From the NCBI GenBank assembly GCA_965242785.1, contig CBDETA010000001.1, forward strand, positions 79,444-143,443: a DNA stretch of 64,000 nt, given 5' to 3'. The position numbers were made by a program, and so were the translations under genes. Source of the DNA: an uncultured Maricaulis sp. (GTDB taxonomy: Bacteria; Pseudomonadota; Alphaproteobacteria; Caulobacterales; Maricaulaceae). This document shows positions 30,308 to 57,397 of the stretch, piece after piece (position 1 is the stretch's first letter; each line of letters starts with the position of its first letter). The notes beneath the pieces are model-generated. The model searched no databases. It was not told where the DNA came from and worked only from the letters and a program-made list of their open reading frames with translations.

Positions 30308-30357
30308 AGGGGCAAGTGTGGGGTGCGCGATTTAGAACCGAAAGCGACCCCACGCAC

Positions 30358-30518
30358 CATCCTCGCCCTTGATGGGCGAGGGGGACCGCGAAGCGGTGGA
30401 GTGGGTGGGGGCGAGGTGTTTCCCGGGAGGGGCACCGGGATTCGCAGCGCTTCGCGCTTTCACCCCTTCCGACCCGAAGCTCCGCTTCGGCCCACCTTCC
30501 CCGTCAAGGGGAAGGATG
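30358..30518. repeat. Palindromic REP/MITE-like element, family A copy 1
   Basis: Hairpin terminal inverted repeats CATCCT(CG/TC)CCCTTGA(T/C)GGG; 39-nt core (30433-30471) is the exact reverse complement of 49019-49057. Confidence 0.8.
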
Positions 30519-31770: not shown

Positions 31771-32139
31771 ATGAGTGACGCGGGCGAAGATGCAGGGCGG
31801 TCGAAGATGACAGGCCCATTGATCGGCTTCTGCACGGTCGGAGCGATCATCTTTGCCCAAACGTTGGGAGAGCTCGCTGGCGCTGCATTTCTTCCCGAGC
31901 AGTTGGCTGAGTACGGACCGCTGCTCGTCGCCAGCCTGTTGGTATGTACCGCCGGTTACGCACTCGGCTGGAGCCCTTGGACGCTCATCACGGCCGTCGC
32001 AATCGCGATGACCAACTGGCGGCTGCATGCCCGTGACGGTGACGTGTCTGAATGGGCCTTGCAGAGTGTCATTATGTTAGGCGCTTTTGGATTGGGCTTG
32101 GTCCTGGCCAAGGCGCTGCCCGCATGGAGGTCAATTTGA
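31771..32139 (+). CDS. Hypothetical membrane protein (operon cassette)
   Basis: Multi-TM ORF with lower GC3; TGATG-coupled to the next gene. Confidence 0.6.
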   Translation: MSDAGEDAGRSKMTGPLIGFCTVGAIIFAQTLGELAGAAFLPEQLAEYGPLLVASLLVCTAGYALGWSPWTLITAVAIAMTNWRLHARDGDVSEWALQSVIMLGAFGLGLVLAKALPAWRSI

Positions 32140-32498
32140 TGCTTACGCTTTTCGCCTCAACCCTCCTCCTCACCACCCAATGCATCGGCTATGGCGCCGA
32201 CGGCACGCTGGAAGAGCAGTTCGACCAGTGCCTTGCCGGCGAATGGGGCGAGGAAGACTGCACCTCCGGCCGCGCGATCCGGTCCGCCGGCTTCACCGAT
32301 GCCGAGGGCGAGGCCTGCACCATCGACTATCTCATCCGCGACCCGCACACCGGCGGTTTCCGCCTGACCACGGTGTGCGGCGAGACGCGCGAAACCGCCG
32401 TCTGGATCGTCGAGGACGGGCAGCTGAAGATCGGTGACAGTGTCGCCGGCTATCCCACGGCCGCCTGGCGCTGCCATGCGGAGGGCGCGCATGAGTGA
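32139..32498 (+). CDS. Secreted Cys-rich hypothetical protein
   Basis: Signal-like N-terminus; several Cys; coupled at both ends. Confidence 0.6.
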   Translation: MLTLFASTLLLTTQCIGYGADGTLEEQFDQCLAGEWGEEDCTSGRAIRSAGFTDAEGEACTIDYLIRDPHTGGFRLTTVCGETRETAVWIVEDGQLKIGDSVAGYPTAAWRCHAEGAHE

Positions 32499-32925
32499 GG
32501 CGTCCGCCTCCGTCCTCACCGGCACGCGTGCCGGCCTTGTCGCCGCTCTCGCCGGCGGGGCCGGGCTCTATTTTGCCGGCCGCTTGTCGGCAACGGTCTG
32601 GGTTGGCGTGTCGGCGGCGCTCACCAGCCAGCCGCTCTGGCTGCCCGCGGTCTTTCCCGCCGCCCTGACCACCGTGTTTGCCGTGCTGATCGGCCTCTTG
32701 CTGGGCCATCGCCCCTACATCCTCGCCGCACTCGCCGGCGCCTGGGTGTTCAGCCTGGGGCTCAACCTCCTGCCGATCGCGCTGTCAGCCCTCACCGGCC
32801 TGGGCCCGTCCGAAGCCATGCTTGGCGCCCGCCTGACCGCCAGCGCCACCACCGCCATCGGCCTCATCGCCCCTTCGCTGGGCCTGCTGGCCACCCTGTT
32901 TTTCGTCCGCGGAGACCGCGCCTGA
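32491..32925 (+). CDS. Hypothetical 4-TM membrane protein
   Basis: Hydrophobic ORF; ATGAGTGA overlap with the upstream gene. Confidence 0.6.
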   Translation: MSEASASVLTGTRAGLVAALAGGAGLYFAGRLSATVWVGVSAALTSQPLWLPAVFPAALTTVFAVLIGLLLGHRPYILAALAGAWVFSLGLNLLPIALSALTGLGPSEAMLGARLTASATTAIGLIAPSLGLLATLFFVRGDRA

Positions 32926-33533
32926 TGTACACCCCGCCCGCCTACCGCATGGAAGACCAGTCGGAGATGCGCTCGCTGATGCGCACCTATGACTTTGCCT
33001 TGCTTCTGGTGCCGGGCATGCCGGACCTGGCGGCGACGCACATCCCGCTGAAACTGGCGGATGAGCGCCTGGTGCTGATCGGCCATGTCGCCCAGGCCAA
33101 TCCGATGGCCGAGGCGATCCGCGCCGGCAAGGAGGCCATCGCCATCTTCTCCGGCCCGCACGCCTATGTCTCGCCGACCTGGTATTCCGATCCCACCATC
33201 CATGTGCCGACCTGGAATTATGTCGCCGTGCACGCCTTCGGCCCGCTGGTGCCGCTGGAAGGCGAGGAGGCCGAGCGCGCCCTGTCCTCGCAGATCGCCG
33301 ATTTCGAGGCCGAATGGCGCATCACCGACATCGAGCTGAAGCGCCGGGTCAAGCTGGAAGCCGCCATCCAGTGTTTCGAGATGGAAATCCAGCGCCTGGA
33401 GGGCAAGGCCAAGCTGTCGCAGAACCATTCCGTCGAGGAACGCCTGCGCATCGCCCACGCCCTCAACGAACGCGGCGAACACGCCGTCGCCTTCCACATG
33501 GTCGAAGACCAGGAGGACGAGACGGATGAGTGA
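32925..33533 (+). CDS. FMN-binding negative transcriptional regulator (PaiB family)
   Basis: MYTPPAY, ATHIP, GPHAYVSPTWY, VPTWNY and KAKLSQN motifs. Confidence 0.9.
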   Translation: MYTPPAYRMEDQSEMRSLMRTYDFALLLVPGMPDLAATHIPLKLADERLVLIGHVAQANPMAEAIRAGKEAIAIFSGPHAYVSPTWYSDPTIHVPTWNYVAVHAFGPLVPLEGEEAERALSSQIADFEAEWRITDIELKRRVKLEAAIQCFEMEIQRLEGKAKLSQNHSVEERLRIAHALNERGEHAVAFHMVEDQEDETDE

Positions 33534-34100
33534 GCTTGTCTATCCGGAAGCCTCGGATTTCTGCCCCCGCTTGCGGGGGAAGTGGTTGAGCGTCAGCGAA
33601 ACCGAAGGGGGAAGTCGCAAGGCGCGCCAACGCTCGATCAGGCTGCGCCAGTCGATGACCGATGCCGAACGCATCCTCTGGTCGCGGCTGCGCAAACGCC
33701 AGATGCTGGACCAGCATTTCCGCCGCCAGCATCCGATCGGACCGTTCATCGCTGACTTTGCCTGCGTGAAGCTCAAACTGGTTGTCGAGGTGGATGGCGA
33801 TACGCACGGCACCGACGCCCAGCTGGCGTATGATGCCCGGCGGACCCGCTTCATGGAAACGCGCGGCTGGACGGTGGTCCGCTGCTACAATGTCGACGTC
33901 TATCGCAATCTCGATGGCGTTCTCACCCAGATCGGGGATGCGGTGCACGATCTGTGTCAGCGCTCAATGACTGACACGCCGCTGCGCGGCGCCCCCTTCG
34001 ACCCTTCTTTGCCCGGGCAAAGAAGGGCCACTTCCCCCGCAAGCGGGGGCAGAAAGTCGATAAAGGAAACCAAACCCGCCAAAGGGGAAAGGAAGCCACA

Positions 34101-34104
<4 letters not shown>
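33526..34104 (+). CDS. DUF559 (Vsr-like PD-(D/E)xK) endonuclease domain protein
   Basis: [37 protein letters not shown] and [17 protein letters not shown] motifs. Confidence 0.88.
33558..34055. mobile_element. Putative DUF559-carrying palindromic element bounded by perfect 28-bp terminal inverted repeats
   Basis: TTTCTGCCCCCGCTTGCGGGGGAAGTGG (33558-33585) and its exact reverse complement (34028-34055); no target-site duplication seen. Confidence 0.6.
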
Positions 34105-35311: not shown

Positions 35312-35569
35312 ATGAGCGACGATCTCCAGAAAAAGAAAGACGACACCGCCAACATCCTCGTCCTGGGCATGCCGCTGGGGCTCCCGCTGGGCGTGGCGGT
35401 CGGAATCTCTCTGGGCCTCGCGTTGGACAGCATCGCCGTGGGCCTCGCGATGGGGATCGGTATTGGAATGTCCTTTTCGGTCGCCATCGGCGCTGCCCGG
35501 CTGGCCGAGATCAAGAAGAAACAGGACGCCGCCGCAGACGGCGATGCGTCCGACGAGGAGAAATCCTGA
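35312..35569 (+). CDS. Small glycine-zipper membrane protein (cassette A)
   Basis: GxxxG-rich TM segments; C-terminus DAAADGDASDEEKS shared with cassette B. Confidence 0.65.
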   Translation: MSDDLQKKKDDTANILVLGMPLGLPLGVAVGISLGLALDSIAVGLAMGIGIGMSFSVAIGAARLAEIKKKQDAAADGDASDEEKS

Positions 35570-35708: not shown

Positions 35709-35951
35709 ATGTCGTTCGACGTCGACGTTCAGGGCAATATGACCAAGAACTTCGCGATGATCGTCGCGACCCTCTTGGGAGCGCTGATCGGCGGGATCGC
35801 CGGGTCATTTTTCGGTTCTGCCAGGACCGGTGCCGCGGTCGGCGTCGGTATCGCGATTACGATCTCCCTGATCGTCCTGCTTCCACTGAAATTCGAATCC
35901 ACCACGGACGCCGCCGCAGACGGCGATGCGTCTGACGAGGAGAAATCCTGA
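35709..35951 (+). CDS. Small glycine-zipper membrane protein (cassette B)
   Basis: Two GxxxG TM segments; same C-terminal 14 aa as cassette A. Confidence 0.6.
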   Translation: MSFDVDVQGNMTKNFAMIVATLLGALIGGIAGSFFGSARTGAAVGVGIAITISLIVLLPLKFESTTDAAADGDASDEEKS

Positions 35952-48971: not shown

Positions 48972-49140
48972 CATCCTCCCCCTTGATGGGGGAGGTGGAT
49001 CGCCGCGCAGCGGCGAGACGGAAGGGGTGAAAGCGCGAAGCGCTGCGAATCCCGGTGGAGGCAAGTCTGGAAGAACCTCGCTGTCACCCCTTCCACCACG
49101 GCTGCGCCGCGGTCCCCCTTCCCCATCAAGGGGAAGGATA
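48972..49140. repeat. Palindromic REP/MITE-like element, family A copy 2 (inverted)
   Basis: Same hairpin TIRs and 39-nt core as 30358-30518. Confidence 0.8.
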
Positions 49141-57006: not shown

Positions 57007-57042
57007 GATTGTCATCCCGGGCATCCATCCGGGATGACGATC
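57007..57042. repeat. Family B REP, internally deleted mini-copy
   Basis: Equals the ends of the 57262-57397 copy joined at a CCGG microhomology. Confidence 0.75.
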
Positions 57043-57067
57043 AGAGCGCAGGCCTCTCCCCCGTCCA

Positions 57068-57171
57068 CCATGTCTCCCGGCCCCCGAGCCGGGACCTCCC
57101 GCGCAACCGCTTCGCGCGCCTTGTCCAATGACAGACCCCGGATAGCGCTGGCGCGCTTCCGGGGGAAATGG
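57068..57171. repeat. REP-like palindromic element, family C
   Basis: Imperfect TIR CCATGTCTCCCGG / CCGGGGGAAATGG with internal hairpins. Confidence 0.55.
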
Positions 57172-57261
57172 CGTGGTGTTGTGATAAAGCGGCGGCACTC
57201 GGCTCAACGCGCCGCATACCGGTTCGTATCCCTGTTCTTCTGTAACGGCTTGAACCCACCC

Positions 57262-57397
57262 GATTGTCATCCCGGCCGAATGCCCCGCGAAAGCGGGGCG
57301 CAGCGCCGGGACCTATCGCCATGAGCCTCGCTGGTGCAGACATGGGTCCCGGACTTGCGCCCGGCTCAAGGCCGGGCATCCATCCGGGATGACAATC
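57262..57397. repeat. GTCATCCC-type REP element, family B full copy
   Basis: Same TIRs and GAAA hairpin as 52274-52367. Confidence 0.8.

Follow-up and report, generated by a model that had tools for sequence, protein, structure and literature searches.

A small gene of the DUF559 family, lying between a paiB-like gene and a thiolase gene of an uncultured Maricaulis sp. (Alphaproteobacteria), is framed by a pair of inverted hairpin repeats, and the question raised by this locus is whether the predicted nuclease and the repeats around its gene belong to one functional system. The stretch of DNA analysed, called the window here, is 64,000 nucleotides (nt) long (contig CBDETA010000001.1, positions 79,444 to 143,443 of the forward strand), and the whole feature is a cassette of ~500 bp inside the paiB-thiolase spacer. 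The repeats belong to the family described in Escherichia coli as BoxC, PIT, or triplex motif (TM) repeats, and their association with DUF559 genes is statistically and phylogenetically robust; a functional link between the two is considered very likely. The reading preferred here, to which a probability of about one half is given, is that DUF559 is the cognate nuclease of TM repeats, in the manner in which REP-associated tyrosine transposases (RAYTs) are partners of repetitive extragenic palindromic (REP) elements, with host repair maintaining and spreading the units. It draws on the architecture of the locus, its generality, the polymorphism of the site, sequence conservation, and the low copy number of the gene, all of which are observed; DUF559 would bind or cut TM DNA and thereby spread or maintain the repeats. 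An earlier note on this DNA had noticed the framing and proposed a RAYT/REP-like system. The observation held, and the interpretation is partly supported and apparently needs to be recast as a general DUF559-BoxC/TM partnership. The parts of the cassette, from left to right, are the following.

33526-34104, plus strand: maximal DUF559 open reading frame (ORF), 192 amino acids (aa), with the Pfam domain at 33619-33942 and the confidently folded part, aa 31-150, at 33616-33975
33553-33585, plus strand: left terminal repeat, including the exact 28-nt arm at 33558-33585
33561-33582, left arm: hairpin H1, with pyrimidine arm CTGCCCCCGC, loop TT, and purine arm GCGGGGGAAG
33603-33611, plus strand: inner G-rich block CGAAGGGGG, read from the sequence
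33992-34000, plus strand: inner C-rich block CCCCCTTCG, complement of the left inner block and unchanged in orthologs
34002-34027, plus strand: hairpin H2', CCCTTCTTTGCCC/GGGCAAAGAAGGG, with a 13-bp stem, in loop 2 of the right unit
34028-34060, minus strand: right terminal repeat, including the exact 28-nt arm at 34028-34055
34031-34052, right arm: hairpin H1'

The arm TTTCTGCCCCCGCTTGCGGGGGAAGTGG, at 33558-33585 on the plus strand, returns as its exact reverse complement at 34028-34055 on the minus strand. The inverted arms can be extended to 33 nt at 94% complementarity, a match that appeared in none of 100 shuffles and is expected zero times by chance. Each 28-nt arm holds a hairpin, CCCCCGC-TT/AA-GCGGGGG, and this structure, together with the inner pair, is as the earlier note had described it. 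Read from outside to inside, an end consists of H1, 2-3 bases, a variable hairpin H2, and the G-rich block GAAGGGGG; of the two copies of H2, the right one (34002-34027) is intact and the left one, where a TTG codon sits at 33586, degenerate. In folding computations, which consider Watson-Crick pairs only, the left arm taken by itself is no more stable than its shuffled versions (z -0.97). The block GAAGGGGG (33604-33611) mirrors the purine arm GGGGGAAG (33575-33582) exactly, and it therefore corresponds to the third block of a triplex-type motif. Homologous loci display a cleaner version of the same plan, which on the left reads TTTTCCTCCCCC-loop-GGGGGAGG, H2, CGGAGGGGG, 3-6 nt, and the start codon, and on the right is the inverse.

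In E. coli, BoxC-type repeats were already known in the early 1990s. The E. coli consensus of the BoxC/PIT/intrastrand triplex motif is CCCTCNCCC-N3-6-GGGNGAGGG-N3-GGGNGAGGG; strain MG1655 carries 23 TM copies, five in inverted doublets, and the family is present in more than 260 genomes (PMC4666352, Holder et al. 2015). The three blocks that characterize it (a pyrimidine arm, a complementary purine arm, and a mirror G-rich third block) are found at the left end of the cassette at 33561-33570, 33573-33582, and 33604-33611, and inversely at the right end. The two kinds of repeat also share an intergenic, multi-copy distribution, frequent inverted doublets, and rearrangement-prone loci, and BoxC flanks the E. 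coli DUF559 gene ycjD itself. They differ in that the arm of the window units is CTGCCCCCGC, not CCCTCNCCC, and in the second loop, which in BoxC is a 3-nt TTA/CCG, as in the TMECO consensus with its ~3 nt, whereas in the window it measures 20-26 nt and contains a hairpin of its own. The window units are a structural variant of BoxC/PIT/TM repeats in which loop 2 is enlarged into a hairpin, and the palindrome is neither private to this locus nor a new family. An Rfam scan of the whole window at the gathering threshold gave no matches.

Gene-less copies had also been announced for the window. The exact palindrome has no second copy within the 64 kb, and what does occur are related units arranged as two inverted doublets.

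30357-30518: gene-less inverted doublet, resembling REPINs and miniature inverted-repeat transposable elements (MITEs), composed of a pair of related triplex-type units whose G-rich third blocks point inward
48973-49139: another such doublet, also inverted and gene-less, located in an intergenic spacer

Each doublet is ~165 nt long, the two have an exact core of 39 nt in common, and their layout is that of the ends of the DUF559 element. The first is situated upstream of an acyl-CoA dehydrogenase gene, in a spacer that is shorter and diverged in two orthologous contigs (L001 and L002), from which this doublet is missing; for the second, a long single-strand hairpin is computed (-57 kcal/mol, z -7.2). 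A finder for the three-block motif returned exactly four units in the window, all from the two doublets, against 0-1 in Markov controls, and it missed the DUF559 arms because their stems carry one mismatch. The dispersed intergenic occurrence in several copies, inverted doublets included, that is typical of the family is thus found within the window. Further copies of the H1 arm, followed by a canonical H2 and the G-rich block, are present in contigs of the same sample.

The association extends far beyond this locus. A genome scan yielded 80 loci with DUF559 homologs, mostly from Alphaproteobacteria; TM units were counted in 86 loci. In the 80 loci, the density of perfect hairpins rises to a peak 50-100 nt beyond either edge of the DUF559 core (0.57 per locus per 50-nt bin on one side and 0.47 on the other), against a background of ~0.05 and a density of 0.02 inside the gene. 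In 49 of 72 loci (68%), an inverted-repeat match with a score of 14 or more links the upstream to the downstream flank of the gene, compared with 5.6% when flanks from different loci are paired. TM units reach 3.48 per kb within 250 nt of the core, 0.095 per kb beyond, and 0.29 per kb in far non-ORF DNA, which makes for a ~12-fold enrichment near the gene over non-ORF DNA of the same loci. At least one unit is present in 53/86 upstream and 47/86 downstream spacers, vs 5/78 far ones, and the nearest unit faces the gene in 41 of those 53 and in 32 of those 47. Units with a 3-nt second loop (44) occur among those flanking DUF559 genes next to others whose loop is mostly 12-31 nt; the long variant with a loop-2 hairpin is common in Hyphomonadaceae-like loci. 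Most homologs, then, carry flanking repeats, and the framing first described as strictly inverted is the rule across the DUF559 family, although direct and one-sided arrangements also occur.

All ten distant named genomes inspected, whose DUF559 genes are 40-54% identical, have the same arrangement: Sinorhizobium (S.) meliloti, Sphingomonas, Azospirillum, Deinococcus proteolyticus, Neisseria gonorrhoeae (NGO0050), Photobacterium, Pseudanabaena, Picosynechococcus, Synechocystis, and E. coli (ycjD). In D. proteolyticus the inverted repeat at the DUF559 gene is ~52 nt long, and the full doublets on the flanks of the Sphingomonas and Neisseria genes are in direct orientation. Sphingomonas parapaucimobilis YK209 possesses three DUF559 paralogs, 43-46% identical, in the sufB-sufC, pntAA-pntAB, and yqeY-dnaG spacers, and no two of them are framed by the same TM variant. 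The gene is frequently found within operon spacers and is low-copy, at 1-2 per replicon (38 places among 35 records of plasmids or chromids).

The 192-aa ORF matches DUF559 (PF04480) with an E-value of 4.5e-33 and 113.8 bits, against a gathering cut-off of 20.6, over aa 32-139, in keeping with the family assignment first given for it. DUF559 and MTES_1575 were the only Pfam models matched, and no Pfam match to the Vsr sequence model (PF03852) was obtained for this ORF. The NCBIfam model PRK09767 (YcjD) matches with an E-value of 5e-27, yet under its equivalog cut-off, and the only PADLOC match, to a methyl-directed restriction enzyme model, was weak (E 5.6e-4) and was set aside. AlphaFold gives a pLDDT of at least 82 over aa 31-150 and low confidence for aa 1-30 and 151-192. 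The closest structure found by Foldseek is 3HRL, the NGO0050 protein, which aligns with aa 43-142 (TM-score 0.88, E 4.7e-18), followed by the homing endonuclease I-Bth0305I (3R3P; E 3.6e-4, TM-score 0.69) and, weakly, by Vsr (E 1.3e-2). Across 30 homologs, D77 and E88 of an acidic/histidine core (D..ExD..H) never vary and D90 and H94 almost never, which suggests that D77, E88, D90, and H94 are the catalytic residues. YcjD and NGO0050 are homologous DUF559 proteins whose genes are both flanked by TM-type repeats, but they are only ~35-48% identical to the window protein. With Vsr the protein shares the superfamily and the core fold, whereas the missing Pfam Vsr match, the weak structural match, and the flanking repeats, which lie outside the Vsr paradigm, set it apart, as does the gene neighbourhood: the neighbours are a PaiB-like FMN_bind_2 gene and the thiolase gene, and no cytosine-5 methyltransferase gene adjoins DUF559, and an unlinked partner, as in Caulobacter, may exist.

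Both arms are read in frame within the maximal ORF, as had been pointed out, but this appears incidental. In orthologs the right-arm frame is broken by indels and the ORF stops earlier (at 175 aa in L001), and short homologs begin 14-20 codons ahead of a conserved MT.AE motif, a distance that fits TTG 33586, directly after the left arm. TTG 33586 is therefore the probable start, the tail across the right arm is probably not functional coding sequence, and the translated arms most likely lie outside the real protein, in agreement with the low AlphaFold confidence there. Many database DUF559 proteins carry odd extensions such as 'SPASGG', 'PPPQAGEE', and 'SPMNGGE', which are most likely translated repeat units, a point of practical use for the annotation of their N and C termini. 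The claim that the ORF is ATGA-coupled to both neighbours stands at the thiolase junction alone, since the overlap with paiB is 8 nt (ATGAGTGA). The ATG at 33526 is conserved because it lies within the last codons of paiB, and it is kept even where a different cassette follows. The thiolase ATGA is not kept in orthologs, and ATGA coupling as proof of operon integration was rejected on this ground.

Proteins 71-99% identical to that of the window occupy the same paiB-thiolase spacer in other contigs. Their DUF559 core has a dN/dS of 0.12-0.21 at a dS of 0.5-1.1, compared with 0.24-0.32 (dS 0.40-0.69) for paiB and 0.07-0.09 (dS 0.50-0.64) for the thiolase gene. Judged from these ratios, the gene is functional, under purifying selection, and vertically inherited with its neighbours. 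In the same orthologs, 54 nt of the left end are invariant, as are both right-end blocks, and H2' varies in sequence with its pairing kept. Were these 54 sites neutral, ~24 of them should differ (pS ~0.45), and the invariant ends therefore point either to constraint at the nucleotide level or to homogenization from other copies.

These patterns also bear on the possibility that DUF559, unrelated to the repeats, is a chromosomal nuclease of Vsr type acting in repair or the damage response, and that the TM units serve as expression signals or autoregulatory binding sites, the G-rich block as a ribosome-binding site and the hairpins as occluders, stabilizers, or terminators. Purifying selection and long vertical inheritance are what such a host function predicts, as is the frequent location of the gene inside operon spacers, and in most loci the third block ends 1-6 nt ahead of the start codon, a distance at which it serves as a Shine-Dalgarno site. 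The only DUF559 member with functional data, Caulobacter VsrA, is SOS-induced, Vsr-like, and functionally tied to the 5-methylcytosine methyltransferase ScmA, and it damages DNA in vivo without this partner methylase (PMC12907096). A host function of this kind leaves unexplained, however, the dispersed gene-less doublets, the inverted units on the 3' side of the gene, the cognate variants specific to each paralog, and the replacement of one DUF559 gene by another in the same spacer; in addition, no methyltransferase gene adjoins the window gene, and PIT elements were reported to have neither promoter nor terminator activity (PMC4666352). We regard this explanation as unlikely.

The preferred reading, a nuclease acting on its cognate repeats, can be examined further at the paiB-thiolase spacer itself, which was compared among relatives whose PaiB and thiolase are 76-86% and 92-97% identical, respectively, to those of the window.

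L012: empty spacer of ~92 nt, in which a single small hairpin occurs
L013, sister of L012: DUF559 gene 50% identical to that of the window, together with ~250 nt of units
L008: doublet only, of the same family as the gene-less doublets of the window
L007: gene-less remnant that retains a piece of the DUF559 3' end
L006, L010, and L011: DUF559 gene 49-55% identical to that of the window, with ~200 nt of units before it

The spacer is thus empty, doublet-only, or filled in different relatives, and presence/absence polymorphism, on which the earlier note had made its proposal depend, does exist. L010 is identical to L001, which has the window-type gene, exactly from the right-hand hairpin downstream, and this places an exchange boundary at the hairpin. 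In L006, L010, L011, and L013, the module that the window has on the right of the gene is found on the left with unchanged orientation, which indicates that the architecture is modular rather than that of a fixed transposon with terminal inverted repeats. A strict terminal-inverted-repeat transposon was rejected on account of this change of side and of the full doublets in direct orientation in Sphingomonas and Neisseria. In addition, one metagenome contig (run X9, depth 3.85) joins position 33584 to 34025, the inner edges of the left and right arms, skipping 440 nt; it may stem from a gene-less allele, from another locus, or from misassembly at the inverted repeat, and it was not counted as excision.

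Exchange at the hairpins would also be compatible with a selfish gene of the homing type, in which DUF559 cuts gene-less doublets and is copied into them, the two units acting as homology arms, so that the repeats are its targets and spread by other means. After 3HRL, the fold is nearest to that of I-Bth0305I (EDxHD), an enzyme illustrating that a Vsr fold can serve selfish, recombination-dependent mobility. Doublets and cassettes have the same inward-facing geometry, a spacer that is doublet-only in L008 holds cassettes in close relatives, and the cassette junctions are at hairpins. I-Bth0305I differs from the window protein in being located in a phage group I intron, in its extra DNA-binding domains, in an identity of 15-16%, and in having no palindromic repeat partners. 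Homing sits poorly with a gene that remains low-copy despite many potential target doublets and is vertically stable at this site, the homology arms would measure merely ~30-60 nt, and the origin of the repeats would be left unexplained. This explanation appears quite unlikely.

The reading of DUF559 as the cognate nuclease of the repeats finds an accessible counterpart in E. coli, where ycjD lies between sapF and fabI (envM). The ycjD-fabI spacer contains three BoxC-type copies, the first with the ycjD stop codon in its loop, and BoxC copies are present only on the 3' side of the gene. Used as a query, a BoxC copy finds a median of 18 places per genome among 5426 E. coli genomes (20 in MG1655). 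The gene itself is single-copy and present in 3378 of the 5426, the others carrying the eefRABCD efflux operon at that site. In the literature, ycjD is assigned to phylogroups A, B1, and C together with ST69 and ST182, at least two independent replacements are inferred, and B2 strains have eef in its place (PMC12817139), a replacement that was checked directly in LF82. According to the published table of 56 strains (PMC4666352 Table S7), from which the counts by strain are taken, A/B1 strains, which carry ycjD, have 19-30 TM copies (MG1655 23), as against 1-2 in B2 strains (CFT073, LF82, UTI89, and others); O157:H7 has 11, phylogroup D 13-15, and SMS-3-5 7 (PMC4666352). TM copy number thus appears to track ycjD, but the events are few and confounded with phylogeny. 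The hrpB-mrcB spacer holds a doublet in MG1655 (L110) and is an empty site in LF82, and in strain 12089 (L112) the BoxC doublet there has collapsed to a single plain hairpin through a deletion between two GGGAGAGGG blocks.

Two rearrangements concern ycjD itself. In MG1655 (L101, 2790-2925, minus strand), ~75 nt of the gene's 3' end and the BoxC hairpin are tandemly duplicated just downstream, and the duplicate looks like what is left of a second cassette or like a product of repair. In ETEC6 (NZ_CP041627.1, 1404328-1406705), an IS1 splits ycjD, and two DUF559 fragments are annotated around the IS1B transposase.

Terminal inverted repeats around one small gene, together with short gene-less derivatives made of two ends, recall the relationship between insertion sequences (ISs) and MITEs, and DUF559 could accordingly be imagined as cargo of a MITE-like element moved in trans by a RAYT or IS enzyme, or as a bystander of repeats that prefer to insert beside each other. 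An IS4-family transposase does adjoin the S. meliloti copy. Across DUF559 loci, however, no transposase is consistently nearby, and the authors of the TM study likewise reported no mobility gene near these repeats (PMC4666352). DUF559 is the sole ORF inside the element and the sole DUF559 gene in the window; the element encodes no DDE, HUH, serine, or tyrosine transposase, and no target-site duplication is visible at the window doublets, the flanks in L001 and L002 being too diverged to place boundaries. A gene present in 1-2 copies per replicon and inherited vertically over long periods is likewise unlike an IS, and the constancy of one cargo gene across phyla and the paralog-specific repeat variants would be hard to explain if it were a passenger. 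This possibility is given a low probability. Finally, chance or generic signals, that is, ordinary terminators or GC-rich palindromes beside a small gene, might be invoked because GC-rich genomes are rich in hairpins and the left arm folds no better than shuffles, but they are effectively refuted by the controls, with zero arm matches expected, ends invariant at dS 0.5-1.1, the ~12-fold TM enrichment, and flank matching of 68% vs 5.6%.

What remains best placed is a partnership between DUF559 and TM repeats comparable to that of RAYTs and REPs or REPINs. In both cases the enzyme gene is low-copy, vertically inherited, and under selection and lies between two repeats in inverted orientation; further copies of that repeat are scattered without the gene, as singlets or inverted doublets, and variants are specific to paralogs. 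A lack of target-site duplications may be a further common trait. The enzyme here is a predicted PD-(D/E)xK nuclease of the Vsr fold instead of an HUH transposase with a single catalytic tyrosine (Y1), the window repeat has a third mirror block, and action of DUF559 on the repeats would have to be its counterpart to RAYT activity. The RAYT/REP-like comparison made in the earlier note is in this sense borne out for copy number, inheritance, selection, and paralog-specific repeats, while the role of DUF559 as propagator is one that we infer. In the proposed mechanism, the protein would recognize the TM unit as a duplex, a hairpin or cruciform, or a triplex, and nick or cut there; host recombination and repair between TM copies would then maintain and homogenize units and doublets, and host repair would occasionally copy units, doublets, or the nuclease cassette into other TM-bearing spacers, the inner G-rich block doubling as ribosome-binding site of the nuclease gene. 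Nicking combined with host recombination would account for the cassette swaps at hairpins, the invariant ends, the collapse and deletion products, and the instability reported for these loci.

Several observations weigh against this reading. A PD-(D/E)xK nuclease alone is incapable of strand transfer, so that any spread must rely on host repair. Vertical inheritance over a dS of ~0.5-1 means that the copy in the window was not recently mobile, and a clean excision product was not found in reads or contigs. The filled and empty hrpB-mrcB sites of E. coli show no target-site duplication. Under the strict finder, 23 of 86 DUF559 loci are without a TM unit, and the orientation of the units is not uniform. 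Phylogroups D and E are reported to have eef and not ycjD (PMC12817139) and still hold 11-15 BoxC copies, for which reason the correlation between copy number and ycjD rests on few independent events. Lastly, VsrA, the only relative studied, is an SOS-induced Vsr-like nuclease with a methyltransferase partner (PMC12907096).

A literature search, which was not exhaustive, returned no paper tying a DUF559 protein to BoxC/TM repeats, and the partnership apparently has not been described so far. The partnership would bear on the origin, mode of spread, and function of BoxC/PIT/TM repeats, an orphan family for some 30 years for which DUF559 is the first candidate partner enzyme. DUF559 is in turn a very large family, and the physical link across phyla gives the repeat and the protein each a function that can be tested, for instance in E. 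coli K-12. More tentatively, and with somewhat more doubt than confidence, YcjD-family nucleases may be the missing partner enzymes of BoxC/PIT/TM repeats in general, forming a second REP/RAYT-like partnership independent of HUH enzymes. If so, such partnerships would have arisen more than once with unrelated enzymes, and a nuclease would have been identified behind a class of genome-instability hot spots, explaining the rearrangements at these loci.

Some further observations concern the surroundings of DUF559 genes. In Rhizomicrobium, Oceanicaulis, and other Alphaproteobacteria (L019, L024, L025, L027, and L036), a DUF559 gene adjoins the homologous thiolase gene, upstream or downstream of it, and the spacers in and near this fatty-acid operon seem to be recurrent landing sites. 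Another conserved insertion site is seen in metagenome-assembled genomes of a Hyphomonadaceae member (L020) and of Vitreimonas (L034), where a DUF559 cassette lies directly upstream of the same flavoprotein oxidoreductase-like gene. The operon of the window has a second variable spot between the acyl-CoA dehydrogenase gene and paiB (31800-32925), where small unannotated ORFs vary in size and in number, from one to four genes, among the close relatives L001-L004. Between the thiolase gene and a fadB-like gene, two paralogous small hydrophobic ORFs (35312-35569 and 35709-35951; 85 and 80 aa) have a common tail, AAADGDASDEEKS. They are present in the 99% relative L003 and absent from L001 and L002, in which the gap between the thiolase gene and the fadB-like gene is ~25 nt. 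Lastly, an inverted-repeat family, GATTGTCATCCCGG...CCGGGATGACAATC, unrelated in sequence to the triplex-type units, is present in three copies within ~400 nt of intergenic DNA at 57008-57397.

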